From positions 580,667 through 620,666 of the forward strand of contig OY760935.1 of assembly GCA_963664295.1 (NCBI GenBank): a stretch of 40,000 bases of DNA. Direction: 5' to 3'. Below, piece by piece: positions 1-38,915 of this stretch. Under the pieces are notes generated by a model. The model did not search any database. It had not been told where the DNA came from and worked only from the letters and a program-made list of their open reading frames with translations. Positions within the stretch are counted from its first letter, which is position 1. Each line of letters begins with the position of its first letter. The stretch is from Candidatus Altimarinota bacterium. GTDB taxonomy: Bacteria; Patescibacteriota; Gracilibacteria; CAIRYL01; GCA-016699755. Both the position numbers and the translations under genes were made by a program.

Positions 1-1485
1 AACATCTTTTTTAACTGGTAAAAATGGAATATATTGCGGAGATTTTGCCAACCACTTTGTTGCATCTTTAATTGGTGCTGTCACTGTGCTTATTACTGTA
101 CCTGCTATGTCACTGGATTTTTCTGCAACCTGTACACTACTCCACATAATAGCAATCACCAAGATATACCACATTGTTTGTTGCAAAAAATTCACATTAT
201 TGAAATTTTTCACAAGCTTATCTGCATCTAATTCAGCAGGATTTGCTGTGAATATATTCAAGCTTTGACCTGCTATAATCATTGTTAAACCAACTACCAT
301 TGGCAAAGCCATTGCTGCTGGAATAAATGCTTGTTTCAAAAATGCTTTTATACCAATAATGCTATCATCGCCTGTTGGCACATTAAAATCCTGCAAAACA
401 GGTAAAAGCACAAAAATCGGCGATAAAATAATATTAAGCCATAGCAGAATTATGCGCAAAAAGAGCACAAAAACCATAACAGCAAATATGATCAAAACAA
501 TTACCAAAACAATAAAAGCAAAAATTGAATTTATTGTTAAATTTATTATTTTCCCATCTCCATCAACTGAAACTGGCAATCTTTCTATGTGTAAAAAACT
601 AAAAGCAAATAATTTGGTTATATTTTCTCCATCAAGCTTAGACAAAATATCTTTGTCTTCTTTCCAAGTAATTTTAAATTTACCGTAATTTACAGTTTCC
701 TGAGGGCAACCTTCTGCTTCATCTTCGGGTATTTGTACTTCACCATTTTCTATTACTTCAAAATCTTCAACCAAACAATAAGCCTTATCATTAGTGGCGT
801 TTATTGCTTCTGATGCTGTTTGTGGTATTGCAAAAACAATATGTGTGGCAACATTGGCAGCATCAAGAATTAATTTTGCACCAAACCAAGTAAAATTTAC
901 TGCCACTAAGGCTATTACTATTTTTGGCAGAGTGGTTTTTATTGCAAATTTATCGTGCATAGAACTGCCCGCAGAAAGCACGTTCATAAGAGCAACAACA
1001 ACTAAAATAATTATAAAAACATAATTCACTATGTCGCGAACTAACATCCACATTGTTTTAAGTACATCAGCCATCTTTGTTTGATTTGCTTCTTTTTCTG
1101 CATCATCAACTCCTATTGCGCCATAAACCCAGTCATTACTGAGCAAAGCACCAACCATGTTGGATATTCCGCTTACAAGTGGTGCTGTTGAAGAAACAAC
1201 AAAAGAAATTATTTCTCCAATGTTTACTTGTGTTTTTGTTGGCTGTGTTTCTTTTTTGTCTGAACCTCCATCATCTCCAGCTCCAGCTCCATCTCCAGCT
1301 CCATCTCCATCTCCATTTCCATCTCCATCGTCAGCATACACAACAGCACTAACTCCAATATTTAATTCTGTTCTACTTTCTATTACTGGTGCTAATGCAT
1401 TAAAAGTAAAAAATAAGAGAAACAAACCTGCTAAGCAGATTTTTCTTAAATTTACCCATTTATTTATTTTGATATTTATTTTCAT
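1..1485 (-). CDS. Polytopic membrane protein, 3'-truncated by the window edge (495 codons visible). It has a signal peptide, a Gly/Asp/Ala low-complexity linker and at least 7 hydrophobic helices. The architecture loosely recalls TrbL/VirB6 (unverified).
   Basis: It is absent from the ORF track because there is no stop in the window. My translation of the reverse strand from the ATG at 1485 stays open in frame to base 1: MKINIKINKWVNLRKICLAGLFLLFFTFNALAPV...DGDGNGDGDGAGDGAGAGDDGG...MWMLVRDIVNYVFIIILVVVALMNVL... The start lies 7 nt after the stop of the 1493..2515 gene. Confidence 0.75.
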   Translation of the reverse strand, partial: MKINIKINKWVNLRKICLAGLFLLFFTFNALAPVIESRTELNIGVSAVVYADDGDGNGDGDGAGDGAGAGDDGGSDKKETQPTKTQVNIGEIISFVVSSTAPLVSGISNMVGALLSNDWVYGAIGVDDAEKEANQTKMADVLKTMWMLVRDIVNYVFIIILVVVALMNVLSAGSSMHDKFAIKTTLPKIVIALVAVNFTWFGAKLILDAANVATHIVFAIPQTASEAINATNDKAYCLVEDFEVIENGEVQIPEDEAEGCPQETVNYGKFKITWKEDKDILSKLDGENITKLFAFSFLHIERLPVSVDGDGKIINLTINSIFAFIVLVIVLIIFAVMVFVLFLRIILLWLNIILSPIFVLLPVLQDFNVPTGDDSIIGIKAFLKQAFIPAAMALPMVVGLTMIIAGQSLNIFTANPAELDADKLVKNFNNVNFLQQTMWYILVIAIMWSSVQVAEKSSDIAGTVISTVTAPIKDATKWLAKSPQYIPFLPVKKDV

Positions 1486-1492
1486 CTTGTTT

Positions 1493-2515
1493 TTAACAAA
1501 AGCTGGTTATGATATCTGAAAAATTATGAAGAAGGTCAATAAAAACAACTGCTGTGCCCGAAGGATCAACACTCTCCGGAGCTTCACTTGCTTTTTGTGC
1601 AAGATCTGTTGCACCTAAACCAATCAAAGCACCAAGTCCACCAAAAGCACTACCTGCTGCGACTTTAATTAACATTTTTCGTCTTTTGCGTGCTTTTAGT
1701 TGATGTTTTTGTTGTGTTTGCTGTGCAGCCATATATTGCTCTGCCAATGCAAGTCTGTATTTATCCATTTCTTGGCCAACTTTTTCACCTTCTCCTTGTC
1801 CTGCTTTATATTTTTCTGCTGACTCCCCTCTTCTGTTTTGCGGAAGCGATACTCGCATATTTTGATCAGGCAAAACCAATTTGCCAGCAGTGCTTCCTGT
1901 TGGAAGTTCTTGCATAACAGGCGGAGGGCCTGCTGTTGGCTTTTTCATAAGTATCAAAACACCAGCAAGGGCAAGTTTTTTACTAAAATTAGGATCAAAA
2001 ATATCTTCCCGTGAAATAATTTCCGGAGCTTGTGTTAGCGCTATTGCTCCTTTTGCTAACATTTCCCCTGAAATATAATTTTGAAAATTATTTTCTCTTT
2101 TTTGCTCTTCTTGTAAGGCTGATCCACTTGTTATTAATTTTTGTTTTTGTAATTTTTCATAATGCATCATTGTTAATAATCCAAGTTTTTGTTTATATGG
2201 CGAATTTTTAAGAAAATTTCTATTAAAACTAAAATTATTGCTTAATTGTTGGCACATATTATTAAATTCCTCTGGATTTGCTTCTAAATAAATATTTTTT
2301 GCTACTGAAACAATTTCTCGAACTTTTTCTTTGGAAAATTTATTTTCAAATTCAAGATTTATTTCTTCTGTGTTTTGATCAAAATTATAAGCCAATTTCG
2401 TAGCGCTACTTTTAACACGCAAAGCCTCAGCAGGAGCTATGTTCTGCTCTTTAATTTCTTGATCCAAAACTACTTGGAGTTTTTCTGCGCCTTGTTGTGA
2501 GGATAATATCTTCAT
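1493..2515 (-). CDS. Hypothetical protein, 340 aa, with a Pro-rich centre and a single C-terminal TM anchor
   Basis: Long ORF. Its start overlaps the upstream stop (ATGA at 2512-2515). The C-terminal hydrophobic segment is MLIKVAAGSAFGGLGALIGLGA. No recognisable catalytic motif. Confidence 0.8.
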   Translation of the reverse strand: MKILSSQQGAEKLQVVLDQEIKEQNIAPAEALRVKSSATKLAYNFDQNTEEINLEFENKFSKEKVREIVSVAKNIYLEANPEEFNNMCQQLSNNFSFNRNFLKNSPYKQKLGLLTMMHYEKLQKQKLITSGSALQEEQKRENNFQNYISGEMLAKGAIALTQAPEIISREDIFDPNFSKKLALAGVLILMKKPTAGPPPVMQELPTGSTAGKLVLPDQNMRVSLPQNRRGESAEKYKAGQGEGEKVGQEMDKYRLALAEQYMAAQQTQQKHQLKARKRRKMLIKVAAGSAFGGLGALIGLGATDLAQKASEAPESVDPSGTAVVFIDLLHNFSDIITSFC

Positions 2516-5500
2516 AGTCTTTTAGCGTGATAAACCATTTCTTGTATTGCTCCTTGGTTTGGGAAAACTTTTTCTTTATAAGCAATAAAGCGTAAAAAAT
2601 CATATCTTTGCTTTGCTTCTATTTCTCCGCCAATATTTTCTTGAATTGTTGCTTTAAACAAAGCTTCGTCAACACTATCTTTAGTAGGAAAACTAGACAA
2701 AGAAGCATCTTGCCACTTTGTTTTATCTCTATCTTGCTTAGAACTAAAATATTTACGAGGGTTTTTTTGAACTTTTTTCCAGTCAATCATATTAACCAAC
2801 TTCATCTCATTTTCATTCCTAAAACATTCTAAAATTCTCTTACCTTTTGTTGATGTGCTAAGGTCAGAGGCAAGTCGAAAACGCATACCCTCTGGATCTC
2901 TGGCATTATCTATCCAATCACCTCCCTTATAAGATGCATACATAATACCACCACCCAATGCTATGTATTCATTATCCCAATTGCCTGAACGAAATGACAC
3001 CAATGTATTTGCCAAGGTTGTTGCTGCACCATAGAAAAAAGCAAAAAATCTAAAAATATTTCCTGGGGTCATATTAGCGTTTAAATCAGTTTCTCTGTTG
3101 TAATCTTCTCTTGATCTTCGCATAGTAAAAGCATTTACCCCTCTTGCATCTCCATATCTATCTTCAGTAAATTCTCCGTATTGCTCTTTGTTCATTGCCA
3201 AATTTCTAGCATGAATTGCTCTTGCTTCTGCACAAAGCTCCAAAACCGCAGCATTTTTTATATGCCCTTGTGTTTTTAATTTCTTTAGCTCTTTATCAGT
3301 TAATCCTTTTTTTGCTTTATCTACAAACAATTTTTTTATTTTTACTGCCTGAGTATCATCACGAGAATCATTTAAAAACTTAAATAAATCTTCCGACATA
3401 TGCGCACCATTTGTTTGAATAAAAAGCACAACCTGATCCATCATGTGTAAACAATCACCATTTTTGTTAATTATTTCCTCTTTTCTTGCTTGGATTGCTG
3501 TTTTTATTTTTTCATCTACGCCATCAAATAATTCGCCTGACTCTCTTTTTTGTTCTTTTTCTGCTTGTTCTTGTCTTCTTTTTGCTTCTGCTATGATTTC
3601 TTTATTATTTGCTATTGCTCTTGGTGAATGAATTTCTTCTTTCATTAAATCCACTATTGCTTTGTGAAAAATAAAATCCTCTTCTGCTCTGGCTTTTTCT
3701 GCTGGACTTGCTGTGTCGGATTTAATTGTTGCCCTTGCTAAAAGCATTTGTTGTTCAGACGATTTTCTTATTTCACTTGCATTTACAAATTTAGAAGATC
3801 CAGCAGTTCTATAGAAATCAAGAATAACTTTTTGTAAATAAGCAACATTATAAGGGGTTCTAGTAAGCAAATTAAGTCTCTCTTTCATTTGTTTAATTTT
3901 CGAATCAAAATCATCAATCTGCTGATTAAATTCAGCGATTGCTTGATTTTTTTGAACTATTTCTGCATCAATAGCTTTGGTTTGCTGGGTCAACTTTTGA
4001 ATTTCTTGATTTTTTTCAGCTATTTCTGCATCAAGAGGGTCAATCTGCTGAACAATTGCCTCAATTTTTTGTTTCTGTTCAAGAAATAATTGGTCATCAT
4101 CACCTTTTTCCCATTGCATTTTTACTTTTGGATTTATATCTGGATTTATAAAAGCTTTAAGCCTCTCTGCCTCTTGAGCTAATTTTTCTTTTCTTTCAAG
4201 CGTTTGTAGCAATTCTTGAGTTAAAACATTAATCCTTTCTTTTAAGGGGTCTCTTAATTTAACTTTTTCTTTAATAGCCTGCTCAATAGGCTTAAGCTCT
4301 TCTTTTAATAAATCTTTAGCTTCAGTTCCTTTTGCTATTGCTTGTTCTAAGTCTTGAATTTGTTTTCGTAAATCAACTTGTTGTTCTTTAAAATAATCTG
4401 TGAATTCCTGAGGTGTTTTTGTGCTTAAAAGCTTAATAAAGTCTAATATTTCTTGTCTTTTTTGTGCTATTTTTGGTAGTCTTTCTGCTAAAAATTTACT
4501 TTCTTGCAAAATACCAAGTTGCAATTCAGAACCAAGTGCAGAATTATTTAATATATCTCTTTCTGCTCTTTCTATTGCTCTTATTCTGCGCTTATCCATT
4601 GTTTCTTCTGCTAATATTTTTTTTAACAATCTTATTTCTTCTAATAAGCCTTTATTTTTAGGATCTTCTTCTAGTTCCTGCATTTTTTTTAGCAATCTTT
4701 TTTCTATCCTTGCCTTGCGGGCTGTGAGAATTTTGATTTCAATAGTAGAAATTGCGTCTTCAAATGATTTTTCAAAAAAATCAACTTCTCTATGCAAAGC
4801 TAAAAATCTTTTCTGATGCTCCTCTTTTAATTCTAATTTTTCTGATTGCGCAAGCTGATCCTGCAAAAACTCTCTCAGTTTCACTAATGGCTGATCTTGA
4901 ATATTTAATTCTTTAAACATATCCAATCTTTCTTTAAGTCGATCTTTTGTGCCTGTAAGCAATAAATCTTCCTTTTTTATTATTTCTGCAATCAATTTAT
5001 CATCAACTTTTTGTAATTTTTCTATTTCATCATCTCTTTCTTTTAATTTTGTCCTTAATCCTTTAGTTTCATTTTTTCCGCCACCATTTAATTTCAAGTT
5101 TATGTCTGCTATTCTTTCTTTAGTTTTATCAAGTTCTTTCCTGTCTTCTTCTGTCAACATCCTATCAATTTGATAATTTTGACGAAGAAGTTCTTTTTTC
5201 TCTGCTAGTTGTTTTGCTTCCTGCTCTAAATTAAAAACTTTTATTCTAAGTTGCGAAGCATCTGCTTTTAATTCTGCTACTTTTGCTTCACGTTCTTTTA
5301 CATTTTCAAGCCCTTGAGCAAAAAAACTTTTTAAATTTTCCACAGCCTCCCAACTAACTTGTCTTTTTTCTGCTTCTTCTCTCGCTGTTTTTTCTGTTAT
5401 CACTTCTCCTGTGTGCTGATATAAACCTTTTCTTTTGTTTAAAATTATGCCTGCCAAATCATCTATTAAGGCTTGTAAATCATTTGGTTTTATTATTATT

Positions 5501-5856
5501 TCATCTTCTTTTAATGCCTCTAAAAATTTATACAAATCTGAGCGCTCATCTTCTTTTCTTTCCCCTCCTACATCAAAAATAACAGAATTTATATCTGTAT
5601 CTGGAAAATCTTTTTTTAATCTCTCATATAATCTTGTTTCAATTTCTTTTTTTATCCTTTCCCGTGTCTTTTTTTCATCAATTTTTTCTACTACCTCTGT
5701 TTCTTTTGATCCAGGAATAGGCACAGTTTCTTTTGCATAAACTGTATATGGGCTTAAATCTTTAACTAAATCATCAAAATAATTATCTATTTGATCAGCT
5801 CGCTCTATAACGGGCTCTTTTTCTCCTGCCGGCAATTTTCCTTCTATTTCTGCCAC
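2512..5856 (-). CDS. Giant coiled-coil protein, 1114 aa, with a C-terminal hydrophobic hairpin and a small C-terminal domain
   Basis: About 900 aa of E/K/Q/L-rich heptad-like sequence, then GNIFRFFAFFYGAATTLANTLVSF ... YIALGGGIMYASY. No Walker A or other enzymatic motif seen. Confidence 0.85.
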   Translation of the reverse strand: MAEIEGKLPAGEKEPVIERADQIDNYFDDLVKDLSPYTVYAKETVPIPGSKETEVVEKIDEKKTRERIKKEIETRLYERLKKDFPDTDINSVIFDVGGERKEDERSDLYKFLEALKEDEIIIKPNDLQALIDDLAGIILNKRKGLYQHTGEVITEKTAREEAEKRQVSWEAVENLKSFFAQGLENVKEREAKVAELKADASQLRIKVFNLEQEAKQLAEKKELLRQNYQIDRMLTEEDRKELDKTKERIADINLKLNGGGKNETKGLRTKLKERDDEIEKLQKVDDKLIAEIIKKEDLLLTGTKDRLKERLDMFKELNIQDQPLVKLREFLQDQLAQSEKLELKEEHQKRFLALHREVDFFEKSFEDAISTIEIKILTARKARIEKRLLKKMQELEEDPKNKGLLEEIRLLKKILAEETMDKRRIRAIERAERDILNNSALGSELQLGILQESKFLAERLPKIAQKRQEILDFIKLLSTKTPQEFTDYFKEQQVDLRKQIQDLEQAIAKGTEAKDLLKEELKPIEQAIKEKVKLRDPLKERINVLTQELLQTLERKEKLAQEAERLKAFINPDINPKVKMQWEKGDDDQLFLEQKQKIEAIVQQIDPLDAEIAEKNQEIQKLTQQTKAIDAEIVQKNQAIAEFNQQIDDFDSKIKQMKERLNLLTRTPYNVAYLQKVILDFYRTAGSSKFVNASEIRKSSEQQMLLARATIKSDTASPAEKARAEEDFIFHKAIVDLMKEEIHSPRAIANNKEIIAEAKRRQEQAEKEQKRESGELFDGVDEKIKTAIQARKEEIINKNGDCLHMMDQVVLFIQTNGAHMSEDLFKFLNDSRDDTQAVKIKKLFVDKAKKGLTDKELKKLKTQGHIKNAAVLELCAEARAIHARNLAMNKEQYGEFTEDRYGDARGVNAFTMRRSREDYNRETDLNANMTPGNIFRFFAFFYGAATTLANTLVSFRSGNWDNEYIALGGGIMYASYKGGDWIDNARDPEGMRFRLASDLSTSTKGKRILECFRNENEMKLVNMIDWKKVQKNPRKYFSSKQDRDKTKWQDASLSSFPTKDSVDEALFKATIQENIGGEIEAKQRYDFLRFIAYKEKVFPNQGAIQEMVYHAKRL

Positions 5857-5861
5857 TTTTT

Positions 5862-6359
5862 TTAAAGCTTAAAAAGGCGAATTAAAATTTCAGAAAAAGT
5901 TTCTGTGCGATTTTTCCATTCAGAAACCTCCTGACTCAAAAGAGCTCTTACCTCTGCTGGATTTTGATCTCCCAATTGAATTGCGATCTGACGCACAACT
6001 CCACGAGTAATACGCAAATTAAGCGTTTTTACATGAGGAGGATCATAAATAATCCAAAAAAGACCAATGTCTTCATAAGGATAAAACCTTGGACCAAACT
6101 TAATTCCTGCATCTGTTATTACAATATCTACAATTTCCGGCTTGTGGTTATATGTCAAAAAAAACACTACTGCCAAAAGCACAACCACAACTGAAAAAGC
6201 GATTGAATCAGTTAAGATTCCATAAAGAATAAGGCCAACAACTAAAACACTCATCACAAAAACCCAAACAGGTCCTCTTTTGTGCTCTAAAAACTCTGGC
6301 GCTTGCCAGGCAATAAGCGGTGTTCCATAGGAAATTTGGTTTTTATTTTCAGTTGTCAT
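5862..6359 (-). CDS. Small membrane protein, 165 aa, with two adjacent TM helices followed by a soluble domain (bacterial PH-like / YdbS-like topology, unverified)
   Basis: The TM pair is VWVFVMSVLVVGLILYGIL / IAFSVVVVLLAVVFFLTY, followed by a roughly 90-aa soluble part. It is the first gene of the operon, 5 nt upstream of the 1114-aa gene. Confidence 0.8.
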   Translation of the reverse strand: MTTENKNQISYGTPLIAWQAPEFLEHKRGPVWVFVMSVLVVGLILYGILTDSIAFSVVVVLLAVVFFLTYNHKPEIVDIVITDAGIKFGPRFYPYEDIGLFWIIYDPPHVKTLNLRITRGVVRQIAIQLGDQNPAEVRALLSQEVSEWKNRTETFSEILIRLFKL

Positions 6360-6382
6360 TTTTATTTATATTTTATCCTTAT

Positions 6383-6411
6383 ATTATCTCATAAAATAAA
6401 GAAAAAATCAA
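6383..6411 (-). promoter_or_regulatory. Candidate sigma70-type promoter TTGATT-N17-GATAAT for the 6359..1 operon
   Basis: On the reverse strand, the -35 TTGATT is at 6411..6406 and the -10 GATAAT at 6388..6383. This is about 24 nt upstream of the ATG at 6359. Confidence 0.4.
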
Positions 6412-6442
6412 TTTAGCTGTCTTGGCTAAACAAAAAACTTCA

Positions 6443-6470
6443 TTGACAAAAATAGGTTATAAATTATAAT
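6443..6470 (+). promoter_or_regulatory. Perfect consensus promoter TTGACA-N16-TATAAT facing the ORF-free repeat cluster
   Basis: TTGACA lies at 6443-6448 and TATAAT at 6465-6470, a 12/12 consensus match. The same TTGACA-N16-TATAAT architecture recurs at 28337, correctly placed before an ORF. Confidence 0.55.
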
Positions 6471-6502
6471 ATTATTCTTACTTAAAAAATTTATTCCCGT
6501 AT

Positions 6503-6903
6503 GTCATTCTGATGGAATGAAATCACCTTTTTTGTCATTCTGAGCGGAAAACACAACCTTTCTGTCATTCTGAGCGTAATGAAATGGAGCGAAGAATCTC
6601 CTTGTCCATGCGCTCAAGTCCTGCCTTAGGTAATTCAACAGTAATGACAACGGGAGATCCTTCGCTTCGCCTAAAGGCTCGCTCAGGATGACAGAATAAG
6701 GGGGATGGATGACATTACATTTGTCATTGTGGATTTCTTGAAGGTGTCATTATGAGCTTTTTGGGGGTGTCGTTGCGGGCTACGACCCGCAATCTCGGGA
6801 GGCAGGAGGTGTCATTCTGAGCGTAAAACACACCCTTACTGTCATTCTGAGCGAAGTGAAATGGAGCGAAGAATCTCCTTTTCCATTTGCTCAAGTCTTG
6901 CCT
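6503..6903. repeat. Cluster of short hairpin repeats (GTCATTCTGAGCG...GAAGAATCTCC family), including one inverted-repeat composite of about 129 bp (6564-6692)
   Basis: Forward units start at 6503, 6534, 6564, 6723, 6745, 6769, 6811 and 6841. One inverted unit lies at 6652-6692. The same family occurs at 38487-38915. Confidence 0.85.
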
Positions 6904-6914
6904 ACATAAAAATA

Positions 6915-8789: not shown

Positions 8790-9767
8790 TTAAGAGGTAT
8801 TTTTGATAAATACTTTAAGTAATTCAATAAAACCATAAGTATTTACAAAATAATTATTTTTATTTTTTTTTAAATTTTGCAAAATATTTTTTCTTTGCTC
8901 AAATGGCTTACCACTTTTTATTGCTTCATTTGCTAATAAGTTAAAATAAATACCATCCAAAAAAGAAATATAGTGAACATCTTTATCTTGATGTGATATA
9001 AAATCTATAATCTCAGACATTTGCTTATCTTGACCACCTCCAGACTCTTTCATGTGTTTATGCTCCATAATAAGAATATGGTCATTAATTTTGATTAAAA
9101 AGTCTGTCTGTTTTTTCTGCTTATTTTTTGACCACTTAAATTTTAACTTAAAATGTTTTAATATTTTTTCAAACAAAATCTTGTCTGCTTTGTCAGGACA
9201 TATATAAATATGATTACTTTTAATAAATTCATCTATATTTTTTGATGAAAAATATGAAAATCCAAACTGATTCAAGATATTTATAATTTTTTTATTTGCA
9301 GCATTGCCATTACCTTTATGTGCTTTTGAGTCTTTGATCGCCTGCAACGAAGAAAATGAATAACCGTGAATTTTATACAACAAGTGTCTATCTTTTATAA
9401 ATTCTGGTATTACATTTTTTAAAAACTCAATTTGTATAAAATGATTTGAATTAAATGTTTTATAAGCACTATATGACATATCTTTCAATGCCCAATAACT
9501 TGTAAATTCAGTATTATTTATTCCAGATGTTTTTAAAATTTTTACAATATTCTCCAATATAATATTTTGCATTTTTTTATTTTTTGACTTAATAGCAATT
9601 TTATATGCAGCAATGTTGTCACATATTTCCACATTGGATTTCATTAAGTTGTTTAGCTTTTTTGGATTGTCAGTAATTATCGGCTTACTATCTTTTACAT
9701 AATATTCATCAATATAAGATTCTTTATTTTTTATGCTTAAGCTAAAAATTTGAATATTACTAATCAT
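8790..9767 (-). CDS. Putative type II restriction endonuclease, 325 aa, partner of the adjacent methyltransferase
   Basis: It lies immediately downstream (11-nt gap) of the N6-adenine MTase gene. A PD-(D/E)XK-like motif is present: TDFLIKINDHILIMEHK (D...E-x-K). Very low GC. Confidence 0.5.
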   Translation of the reverse strand: MISNIQIFSLSIKNKESYIDEYYVKDSKPIITDNPKKLNNLMKSNVEICDNIAAYKIAIKSKNKKMQNIILENIVKILKTSGINNTEFTSYWALKDMSYSAYKTFNSNHFIQIEFLKNVIPEFIKDRHLLYKIHGYSFSSLQAIKDSKAHKGNGNAANKKIINILNQFGFSYFSSKNIDEFIKSNHIYICPDKADKILFEKILKHFKLKFKWSKNKQKKQTDFLIKINDHILIMEHKHMKESGGGQDKQMSEIIDFISHQDKDVHYISFLDGIYFNLLANEAIKSGKPFEQRKNILQNLKKNKNNYFVNTYGFIELLKVFIKNTS

Positions 9768-9778
9768 AATTTAAGTTA

Positions 9779-10789
9779 TTAAAATAATTTTACACTTGGC
9801 ATAACTTTTTCATAAGCTTCTTCTAAGATAGCTCTTGCTGTTTGATAATCTAACCTTCTTCTTCTTTCGCCATTTTTTTTATTACCTTTAAATGGCGAAA
9901 GAAGAAGATCATTAGTTTTTAATCTAAAACTAAATAGTATTTGATTACTTTTTTTAATTATCTTTTCAATTGCTTCTTCGTCTGCTTTCATTTCAATTAA
10001 AGTTATCAATCTTGAGCTAACTTTTATTGTACTAAGATCATAATCAATCTCTTCTGGTTTCATAAACTGAATTAACTTTTTTGTGCTTGTTGTGTCTACT
10101 GCCCTCAATGCTATTTGCCCTCTAGATGAATTAAATCTTATATCAATATGTTTTTGTGGTATTTTTCTCATTTTTTCTATTTCTGCAAAATTACCAATAT
10201 ACTTATCATTTTTATAAACTTTTATTTGACTATAATCTTTATTTTTATTATCAAAACAAATTACACATACAGGATTTTCTGTGTCAAAAAACATTAAATC
10301 CTCAATTATTGTAATATTTTGTATTCTGTGTTTTGGAAACGATGAATTAATAAATGTTTCTGGGACTATCATTACTCCAAAATCATTATTCTCCATACAC
10401 CTGCTAATTGCTAATTGATATAAATCATTATAAGAACACATATTAAAATATTTACTAACTCCGTCATAAATGCCTTTTCTTTTTGCGCTATAGTTTGTTA
10501 AGTACGGCGGATTAGTGATAATTATAGAGTTTTTTATTCTGGGAATATGTTCTAAGCTATTATTAAATTTCCAACCCAAAAATTCATCTATATCTAAACC
10601 AACAACTTTTGAAAAACCTATTTTTTTAGCAATATTTAATAAATCTCCATTGCCAGCAAATGGATCAAAAGCTATTTCTGCTTTAGTAGACTTAATAAAA
10701 CCTAAAACATGATCTTTTAACCAAAAATGTTTTTTTGTAAAAAACTGACCCAAACTTTTCTTTTTTGCAATTATACTCATTAACTTCAT
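9779..10789 (-). CDS. N6-adenine DNA methyltransferase (gamma-type motif order), 336 aa
   Basis: Motifs appear in the order LGQFFT (motif X), FDPFAGNGDLL (motif I, SAM binding), IITNPPY (motif IV). Confidence 0.85.
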   Translation of the reverse strand: MKLMSIIAKKKSLGQFFTKKHFWLKDHVLGFIKSTKAEIAFDPFAGNGDLLNIAKKIGFSKVVGLDIDEFLGWKFNNSLEHIPRIKNSIIITNPPYLTNYSAKRKGIYDGVSKYFNMCSYNDLYQLAISRCMENNDFGVMIVPETFINSSFPKHRIQNITIIEDLMFFDTENPVCVICFDNKNKDYSQIKVYKNDKYIGNFAEIEKMRKIPQKHIDIRFNSSRGQIALRAVDTTSTKKLIQFMKPEEIDYDLSTIKVSSRLITLIEMKADEEAIEKIIKKSNQILFSFRLKTNDLLLSPFKGNKKNGERRRRLDYQTARAILEEAYEKVMPSVKLF

Positions 10790-38157: not shown

Positions 38158-38486
38158 GGATAATTCCTTTCTACGTGTTCTTGAAGTTTAAACAAGGATG
38201 AGCAGTAGCTAGAAAACACCTCCTTCCAGTTTCCTGTTGAAAGTTTATATGTTTGAATGACTTTAAAAGTCATAATTAATCGCAAAGAGATGGACCATCA
38301 GCTTCTTATGAAAATCACGCACAATATGCATGTGGTGTTTCTTTGAAACTAACAGTCCACTCTTTACAGCCAAATTGTTAAAGATCAGTTTAAGTATTAT
38401 ATACTTTTTTTTATATTTGTCAATAGTAATATATATAAAAAAATAATTCTCCTAATAACGCATATAAAAGAGAAAAAAACCGCTTT

Positions 38487-38915
38487 GTCATTCTGAGCGG
38501 AGTGAAATGGAGCGAAGAATCTCCTTGTTTATTCTTTCAAAACCTGCCTTATCTTGTCATTGCGGAATTGATCCGCAATCTCCTTTACCATACGCTCAAA
38601 AACTAATTCGGTTATTACAATAGTAATGACTACGGGAGATCCTTCGTTTCACTCGGGATGACTGTTTTATTTGTCATTCTAAACAAACTATTTTTGTCAT
38701 TCTGAGCGGAGTGAAGTAGAGCGAAGAATCTCCTTAAAACATATACTCAAACCTTGCCTTAGGTGTTCCTCTGCTGTCATTCTGAGCGAAGCGAAGAATC
38801 TCCTTGGACATGTGCCCAAAAACTAGCTTGGCTATTACAGCAGTAATGACTACGGGAGATTCCTCGACTCGCCTAAAGGCTCGCTCGGAATGACAAAAAA
38901 GAAGATCAGGATGAC
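38487..38915. repeat. Second cluster of the GTCATT...AATCTCC hairpin-repeat family, including two inverted-repeat composites (38556-38662 and 38776-38893)
   Basis: Forward units start at 38487, 38556, 38673, 38696 and 38776. Inverted units lie at 38634-38662 and 38854-38893. Confidence 0.85.

Follow-up and report, generated by a model that had tools for sequence, protein, structure and literature searches.

A cassette of four genes, named here g1 to g4, lies on the minus strand at the left end of the 40,000-nucleotide (nt) stretch of the Candidatus Altimarinota bacterium genome analysed here (contig OY760935.1, positions 580,667 to 620,666; hereafter the window). It is operon-like and specific to the class Gracilibacteria sensu lato, where it occurs in metagenome-assembled genomes (MAGs) of Peregrinibacteria/Peribacteria, Gracilibacteria and Altimarinota. 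The last gene, g4, is the best conserved of the four and encodes a polytopic membrane protein whose profile points to a very distant relationship with TrbL/VirB6, a link that appears real but remote, and in ten related loci the gene of a VirD4-type coupling protein adjoins it. We propose, with a confidence that falls somewhat short of even, that the cassette specifies a cytoplasmic-membrane complex built around g4, a very divergent TrbL/VirB6 member working with type IV secretion system (T4SS) ATPases encoded elsewhere. The cassette, the g4 family and a fifth gene found downstream in many relatives (g5) are undescribed in the libraries and papers searched; in particular, a literature search on TrbL_3 (PF19590) and on T4SS in Peregrinibacteria returned nothing on the cassette.

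Organization of the g1–g4 cassette

The features of the cassette are the following:

6383..6411, minus strand: promoter-like match TTGATT-N17-GATAAT upstream of g1, agreeing with the consensus at 9 of 12 positions
5862..6359, minus strand: g1, open reading frame (ORF) of 165 amino acids (aa), with a two-helix transmembrane hairpin and a predicted beta-rich C-terminal domain
2512..5856, minus strand: g2, ORF of 1114 aa with a GTG start and a TGA stop; a charged, probably helical protein with a conserved hairpin
1493..2515, minus strand: g3, ORF of 340 aa, fast-evolving, with a tail anchor
1..1485, minus strand: g4, open at the left edge; first 495 of the 722 codons of a polytopic membrane protein

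An earlier note, made from the letters of the window, had described the four genes as tightly linked, and the ORF list and the sequence bear this out. The g1/g2 junction reads TAA-aaaaa-GTG with a gap of 5 nt, g2 and g3 overlap by 4 nt in an ATGA at 2512-2515, and a gap of 7 nt separates g3 from g4 (TAA-aaacaag-ATG). The frame of g4, said to leave the window, is indeed open from position 1485 to the edge, and its remainder is known from P0001, a full-length protein of 722 aa that a homology search located on a 1.215-Mb contig. The promoter that had been placed in front of g1 fared less well. Matches at 9 of 12 positions numbered 16 in 7 kb, compared to 24.5 +/- 5.1 in shuffled sequences; they are not enriched over this expectation, and the match therefore carries no weight.

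Conservation of the cassette

Relatives of g4 were obtained from a word-index search (three), a scan of species-representative genomes (ten more loci, in MAGs labelled Gracilibacteria, Peregrinibacteria/Peribacteria, Altimarinota and Patescibacteria) and a metagenome scan (80 more). All loci were searched with hidden Markov models (HMMs) made from our own alignments; the flanks covered in the 93 loci reached up to 8-10 kb per side. The contigs of the first three relatives showed the same gene order. Among the 41 loci having at least 5 kb of upstream sequence, 40 contained a same-strand g1 homologue upstream of g4. The distance between the end of g1 and the start of the g4 ORF was 1.5-3.6 kb in these 40 loci (median 2.7 kb), and in 25 of them exactly two ORFs of at least 150 aa lay in between. 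The two middle genes are fast-evolving and were often missed by the HMMs; their architecture is retained. In 20 of 23 loci a hydrophobic segment was present within the C-terminal 55% of the first middle protein (30-38% E/K/Q/R/D), usually some 60% of the way down the chain, and in 22 of 23 loci the second showed one within its last 70 aa. The loss of co-localisation in relatives, which would have spoken against the four genes forming a unit as first suggested, was not seen.

The recurrent neighbours are housekeeping genes: rpsF-ssb-rpsR upstream, together with the genes for threonyl-tRNA synthetase (ThrRS), RecF, RF-1, MutS, ProB and an M23/LysM peptidase. No relative of g4 was found in viral contigs, and tblastn searches of plasmids with g4 and with its more distant relative P0006 returned no match. 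The PADLOC models did not match any of the four proteins, and PHROGs gave only coiled-coil noise. The cassette is thus chromosomal and carries no phage, plasmid or defence signal. Scans of g1–g4 against Pfam, NCBIfam, PHROGs and PADLOC yielded nothing significant, and no curated family covers any of them.

The earlier note had seen no Walker A or other catalytic motif in g2 and took none of the members for an enzyme, and this observation holds: none of the window proteins contains a Walker A motif, and no member of the cassette matched an enzymatic or nucleoside triphosphatase (NTPase) family in Pfam, NCBIfam or the pattern scan. In the aligned relatives, the Walker A pattern was encountered only as isolated, non-conserved matches in three proteins (g3 of locus L010, g4 of L001 and g4 of L012).

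The membrane protein g4 and its remote relation to TrbL/VirB6

Hydropathy analysis of g4 confirmed a polytopic protein starting with a signal or anchor sequence and containing at least seven hydrophobic helices. The TrbL/VirB6 plan, with at least five transmembrane segments and a large extracytoplasmic loop, is therefore present, the sidedness of the loop being a prediction. Read from the N-terminus, the signal/anchor sequence gives way to an acidic Gly/Asp linker; 7-9 membrane helices come next, and the protein closes with a helical tail of about 220 aa that lies off the window. The loop 232-285 holds the conserved Cys237 and Cys260 and would be extracytoplasmic. The nearly invariant Ala51, which precedes an acidic stretch, may represent a signal-peptidase site. 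Five conserved polar residues, R150, N154, N197, D208 and R344, lie within helices. The AlphaFold2 model, computed on 64 sequences, has a mean predicted local distance difference test score of 73.7, with values of 85-96 for the helices of the membrane core. A match to TrAA12 was discarded, as it fell on the low-complexity Gly/Asp linker.

Two proteins at a greater distance, P0005 (Parcubacteria) and P0006, were reached by a profile search starting from g4; each has a precomputed Pfam match to TrbL_3 (PF19590), weak in the case of P0005. Profile–profile comparison with hhalign gave a probability of 99.0% between g4 (alignment A5) and P0005 (E 4.9e-18, 124 columns), and of 97.5% between g4 (alignment A8) and P0006 (E 5.8e-12, 106 columns). 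The match covers a part of the membrane domain and spans the most conserved block of g4, W146..R150-D-x-V-N154..F157...A165...K183..L-P-K...V-N197-F-T/S...D208. The motif shared with these proteins of Parcubacteria-type candidate phyla radiation bacteria can be written W..R(D/N)..N..F...A....K..LPK....(V/I)NF(S/T)....D..N. The likeness extends to the general plan, in which a polytopic core stands between an N-terminal signal or anchor and a long hydrophilic extension at the C-terminus, and to a chromosomal rather than plasmid-borne location. By sequence, g4 is thus a relative of proteins placed by Pfam in a TrbL-like family. In contrast, the similarity is restricted to some 110-125 columns, and the bridge proteins are found in other contexts, next to a giant protein of 2858 aa and without g1–g3. 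They show a weak similarity of their own to Pfam TrbL (E 0.007-0.008).

The locus of P0005 (L014/L015, 615-9191) has this gene two genes downstream of that of the 2858-aa protein, flanked by two small unannotated genes; it may represent another type of cassette built around this membrane module.

The g4 family is large. At E <= 1e-3 the exhaustive HMMER search with the membrane core retrieved 5950 representative clusters, of which 483 remained at E <= 1e-30. Names were available for few of ten clusters sampled from the g4 family and the bridge proteins, and all of them read "hypothetical protein". A search of PDB sequences with the g4 family profile found nothing.

The conserved charged and polar residues in the helices (R150, N154, N197, D208, R344) could also be those of an ion or solute channel or transporter, with g1–g3 as its cytoplasmic regulators or anchors. 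The lack of an encoded motor would suit such a protein, as would one Peribacteria contig (L011, 1-3909) on which a single ORF of 1302 aa joins an MgtE_N-type cytoplasmic regulatory domain (aa 330-422, E 2e-15) to a g4-like membrane domain placed after it. This fusion was seen only once, however, and no transporter family was matched in Pfam, NCBIfam, PDB sequences or by Foldseek. Three large structural partners, one of them a charged helix of 480-1114 aa, would moreover be unusual for a transporter, and we regard this explanation as quite improbable.

The accessory proteins g1, g2 and g3

The best-conserved accessory gene of the cassette is g1. In its product, a short N-terminus with a conserved W-x-APE leads into a strong two-helix transmembrane hairpin (aa 31-70), after which comes a C-terminal domain of about 95 aa. 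The two adjacent helices and the soluble domain proposed at first sight are thus recovered, both helices being strong in the hydropathy profile. The C-terminal domain is predicted to be beta-rich with a terminal helix, and may be similar to pleckstrin homology (PH) domains. The g1 family comprises 97 clusters at E <= 3.7e-24, including Doudnabacteria and other Patescibacteria. Matches below threshold were observed to DUF6232 (14 of 97), DUF5673 (13 of 97, best E 1.3e-5) and bPH_7 (1 of 97). What the bPH families, DUF5673 and DUF6232 have in common with g1 is a transmembrane two-helix hairpin placed before a small beta-rich domain that ends in a helix, but every match is under the curated cut-offs, and the PH-like fold of g1 is a prediction made from sequence. 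The g1 family profile retrieved nothing from PDB sequences.

An assignment of g1 to VirB3/PrgI was considered and rejected. The Pfam VirB3 profile gave E 0.26, a single one of the 97 members reached E 1.5e-3, and hhalign against R388 VirB3 returned 0.1%. In addition, a genuine PrgI, encoded beside VirB4, coexists with a separate g1 homologue in three loci (L017, L018 and L102). Since profile similarity is lacking and PrgI coexists with a g1 homologue, g1 is not VirB3/PrgI.

Outside the class Gracilibacteria, g1 occurs alone, close upstream of recG (L017/L018, 8001-8510; L102, 8663-9175; L019; L101). The two genes are adjacent in four loci, and one gene intervenes in L102. A VirB4-TraC-like-PrgI cluster lies on the opposite strand a few kilobases beyond g1/recG in three of these loci (L017, L018 and L102), which could be due to chance or to an old T4SS association.

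The product of g2 is charged and probably forms a helical rod with coiled-coil stretches. The first description, of about 900 aa of heptad-like sequence in a protein rich in E, K and Q, was right as to the charge and the presence of coiled coil but overstated its extent: a crude heptad score covered about 318 residues, compared to 195 +/- 66 in shuffled sequences (z ~1.9), with discrete segments at roughly 180-300, 356-383 and 494-678. The hydrophobic hairpin reported near the C-terminus (aa 931-973) is conserved in position (alignment A3), G943 being invariant and N962 nearly so. It is, however, weakly hydrophobic, with a maximum Kyte-Doolittle value of 1.35 over 17 aa and a second arm of just 13 aa, and for this reason its insertion in the membrane is put forward as a prediction. 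The hairpin is accompanied by a C-terminal domain of about 140 aa. With 1114 aa, g2 is about twice as long as its homologues (483-721 aa), and the surplus consists of N-terminal charged helix.

Two families that would have given g2 an unrelated role were considered from the start, and neither was recovered. Homology to SMC/Rad50-type proteins is not supported: Walker A is absent, and the score with SMC_prok_A was 16.6 bits, against a cut-off of 729, confined to a coiled-coil stretch. As for a phage tape-measure protein, PHROGs gave weak coiled-coil matches (E >= 4e-4), none to a tape measure, and the neighbours are housekeeping genes.

The g3 protein ends in a Gly-rich transmembrane helix, a tail anchor, with a basic stretch ahead of it (alignment A4). 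The single C-terminal helix previously attributed to this protein was found again, but its "Pro-rich centre" amounts to a short GPPPV stretch. No relatives of g2 and g3 were detectable outside the cassette, and their matches to SMC, adhesin and tail-needle proteins are coiled-coil noise far under the cut-offs. A similarity between the g3 profile and a Doudnabacteria protein of 457 aa was set aside, as it involves low-complexity E/Q/K and Gly/Ala; by its sequence motifs that protein looks like a wall hydrolase.

The architecture of these proteins bears on the proposal of the earlier note, which saw in the cassette a structural, envelope-spanning assembly that could serve attachment, secretion or DNA uptake. 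As a surface apparatus, it would reach through the wall to the host. A candidate extracellular acidic linker and a Cys-containing loop in g4, and the episymbiotic lifestyle of the organism's group, would agree with it. On the other hand, g1, g2 and g3 have no signal peptides, and if the hydrophobic segments insert as predicted, their bulk is on the N-terminal side of the membrane, which would be the cytoplasm. Only g4 has sizeable candidate extracytoplasmic parts, and these are small for such a role (about 150 aa). No adhesin, pilin or ComEC-like domain was found with Pfam and NCBIfam. The envelope-spanning part of the proposal is therefore not supported, and a surface apparatus of this kind seems hardly probable.

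Possible relation to type IV secretion

In ten loci, a gene for a VirD4-type coupling protein of 765-875 aa is convergent with g4, its end being located 7-195 nt from the g4 stop:

L023 10394-12934, L052 9663-11957 and L071 4385-7009, minus strand: VirD4-type coupling protein, tail-to-tail with g4
L030, L091, L056, L034, L048, L087 and L025, minus strand: VirD4-type coupling protein, tail-to-tail with g4

These proteins match TrwB_AAD_bind with 28-37 bits (gathering score 20.5), TraG-D_C with about 21.5 bits (against 22) and DUF87/HerA, and have an N-terminal extension of about 400 aa. The possibility that these downstream TrwB-like ORFs encode FtsK, as one does in L001, was discarded on the basis of the Pfam matches. 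The g4 proteins of the ten loci share mostly 31-49% identity with one another (about 75% for one pair), which indicates that the adjacency outlived considerable divergence. VirB6 takes its substrate from the VirD4 coupling protein.

A fifth gene, g5, directly follows g4 in 35 loci:

L008 4933-8118, L009 12315-15686, L010 12265-15552, L012 9266-13198 and 31 other loci: g5, following g4

Its product is soluble, 1061-1310 aa long, and conserved in the C-terminal region, which includes a VDHDDF motif. The gene is absent from the closest relatives of the window, and no g5 match was obtained in the ten loci with a coupling protein. Neither Pfam nor the PDB gave a match for g5, and it lacks Walker A. 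The idea that it is a degenerate ATPase was rejected, given the absence of Walker A and of any hhalign similarity to the coupling protein.

In one Altimarinota genome (L007, 12130-13503), the gene after g4 encodes a wall-hydrolase-like protein that combines a 3D domain with three PG_binding_1 repeats and recalls a VirB1-type helper; this is a single case.

According to a 2025 survey (PMC12102498), the T4SS of Patescibacteria are MPF-FATA-like, mostly devoid of a relaxase and probably repurposed. T4SS genes including virB6 are, as cited in that survey, essential for the epibiotic growth of Ca. Southlakia epibionticum, the single patescibacterial system in which this was tested. For the class Gracilibacteria, the survey reports homologues of TrsD and VirB3 that are not clustered with virB4, and an absence of VirB6 homologues that it reads as a sign of extreme sequence divergence (PMC12102498). 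The g4 family fits this reported gap. The cassette resembles these systems in belonging to the same phylum, in its chromosomal location, in the lack of a relaxase and in the dispersal of the genes (PMC12102498). It differs from them in that they are defined by VirB4, TrsD, PrgI and VirB2-like pilins, none of which is found in the cassette or its flanks; we infer the link between the two.

Compared to canonical VirB6 (VirB6 of A. tumefaciens; TrwI of R388, PDB 8rt9/8rtd), g4 likewise crosses the inner membrane several times and has a large loop predicted to be extracytoplasmic, and with the extended VirB6-like proteins of monoderm conjugation (PrgH, TcpH, ConG) it shares a length of about 700-800 aa and a C-terminal domain. 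Unlike canonical VirB6, it is not beside virB4, virB3 or virB8.

A series of results weighs against the assignment of g4 to TrbL/VirB6 and of the cassette to type IV secretion. With g4, no match was obtained to Pfam TrbL PF04610 (E <= 10) or to NCBIfam TIGR02783/PRK13852 (E <= 1), the positive control R388 TrwI matching PRK13852 and TrbL_P. Only 1 of 64 scanned members of the g4 family touches Pfam TrbL (E 1.2e-3), below the gathering score. Direct comparison of g4 with R388 TrwI/VirB6 by hhalign gave a probability of 0.2%. Foldseek with the g4 model found nothing significant in the PDB, the TrwI chains (8rt9/8rtd) being at E 5.5-6.3 and TM-scores of 0.31-0.34, where the solved VirB6 is small (268-272 residues) relative to g4. 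The link to TrbL_3 covers a part of the membrane domain and passes through two bridge proteins located outside T4SS loci. Searches by phmmer with R388 TrwK and a Doudnabacteria VirB4 detected no VirB4 in the flanks of the 93 loci or in the 40-kb window, so that g4 does not sit in a T4SS cluster with VirB4, VirB3 or VirB8. No T4SS counterpart exists for g2 and g3, and g1 is not an orthologue of VirB3/PrgI. Finally, the adjacency of g4 and the coupling protein may reflect a single historical event, because synteny is generally kept in this lineage (rpsF-ssb-rpsR, ThrRS, RecF). Besides these results, Foldseek found nothing significant in BFVD, and hhalign showed no similarity of g4 to the two proteins whose genes follow that of VirB4 in a T4SS locus of Doudnabacteria.

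The resemblance of g4 to TrbL/VirB6 channel subunits, which had been remarked upon by eye, therefore stands as remote homology to TrbL_3 proteins with a coupling protein adjoining in ten loci, but membership of VirB6 proper is not supported. Similarly, of the VirB4/VirD4/PilB-type ATPases to which the earlier note had pointed, a VirD4-type protein was found beside g4 in those ten loci, but neither the window nor the immediate surroundings of most loci encode such an ATPase, and no VirB4 is near.

Part of these data would also suit a membrane complex that is peculiar to the lineage and has nothing to do with type IV secretion, such as a divisome, cell-shape or membrane-organising scaffold, in which g1–g3 position g4 at a membrane site. 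The cassette is a single-copy core chromosomal locus amid housekeeping genes (rpsF-ssb-rpsR, ThrRS, RecF), and wall or division genes are found nearby: a true FtsK in L001, a class A penicillin-binding protein in L002, an M23/LysM peptidase in 10 loci and the 3D/peptidoglycan-binding protein in L007. Membrane-tethered coiled-coil proteins are typical divisome organisers, EzrA and DivIVA being examples. The absence of an ATPase from the cassette and of VirB4 nearby, and the failure of the structure search to recover VirB6, point in the same direction. However, the wall-gene neighbours vary between loci, no homology to known division or shape proteins was found, and such a scaffold leaves both the TrbL_3 similarity and the conserved adjoining coupling protein unexplained. 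We consider it rather unlikely, while giving it a real share of our confidence.

It is also conceivable, although again on the unlikely side, that g1–g4, with the g5 protein of about 1100-1300 aa in many lineages, form an unrecognised class-specific machine other than a T4SS and without a dedicated NTPase. The likeness to TrbL_3 would then come from an ancient shared membrane module, and the machine could act, for example, in membrane remodelling at host contact or as an unconventional division or segregation scaffold.

A model of the proposed complex

We tentatively favour the T4SS-related complex, and propose the following arrangement. The four proteins would assemble in the cytoplasmic membrane, with g4 as the channel or platform subunit; its residues R150, N154, N197, D208 and R344 would line the path or a subunit interface. 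The g2 protein, whose length varies, would serve as an extended scaffold or spacer that a short hairpin fixes to the membrane, and g3 would be a tail-anchored partner attached through its Gly-zipper-like helix. The g1 protein would contribute its two-helix hairpin and PH-like domain. In this topology g1, g2 and g3 would all face the same compartment, probably the cytoplasm, where together they may offer a docking surface. The cassette contains no motor; the complex would depend on VirB4/VirD4, encoded elsewhere in the genome or, in one sub-clade, next door, for energy and for the selection of its substrate. Such a system would serve the epibiotic lifestyle rather than conjugation.

Other features of the window

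The window, with a GC content of about 33%, carries a chromosomal gene set: a Na+/H+ exchanger, a restriction–modification pair, four tRNAs, adk, secY, RNase J, a CNNM transporter, histidyl-tRNA synthetase and phosphoribosyl pyrophosphate synthetase. The block beside secY looks like a ribosomal-protein block, as judged from the layout of its ORFs. Genetic code 25 was weighed, the relatives being labelled Gracilibacteria, and was ruled out: the window reads cleanly with table 11, TGA is the stop of 7 among 40 ORFs, and the long conserved ORFs, that of SecY included, are unbroken. An exact-sequence look-up of the g3 and g4 products of the window returned no record.

A Tsp45I-like restriction enzyme and an Eco57I-like methylase are encoded at 8790-10789, in the stretch of lowest GC content of the window (27.5%), beside tRNA-Tyr and tRNA-Thr; this pair may be an acquired restriction–modification island. 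A dispersed intergenic repeat with the core TGTCATTCTGAGCG is located at 6360-6914 and 38486-38895, and 11 copies were counted at up to 2 mismatches, compared to 0.11 expected. The window also shows one inverted pair of 17 nt and a 94-nt direct repeat, 6533-6626 / 6810-6903, 90% identical. At 6443-6470, on the plus strand, a perfect TTGACA-16-TATAAT is directed into the first repeat block. The dispersed repeat had no match in Rfam, and may be an element similar to repetitive extragenic palindromes or miniature inverted-repeat transposable elements, or a small-RNA locus.

Significance

If g4 is the missing divergent VirB6, the cassette would provide a candidate membrane core for the class Gracilibacteria together with three or four wholly new accessory subunits, and it would become possible to test how a monoderm-type T4SS that does not serve conjugation is built in ultra-small bacteria. 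If it is not related to T4SS, it would be a conserved core membrane complex without a characterised homologue, kept in genomes of about 1 Mb, where retained genes are expected to matter. In either case the families of g1, g5 and g4, the last with 5950 representative clusters, are of considerable size and have no significant match in Pfam or NCBIfam.

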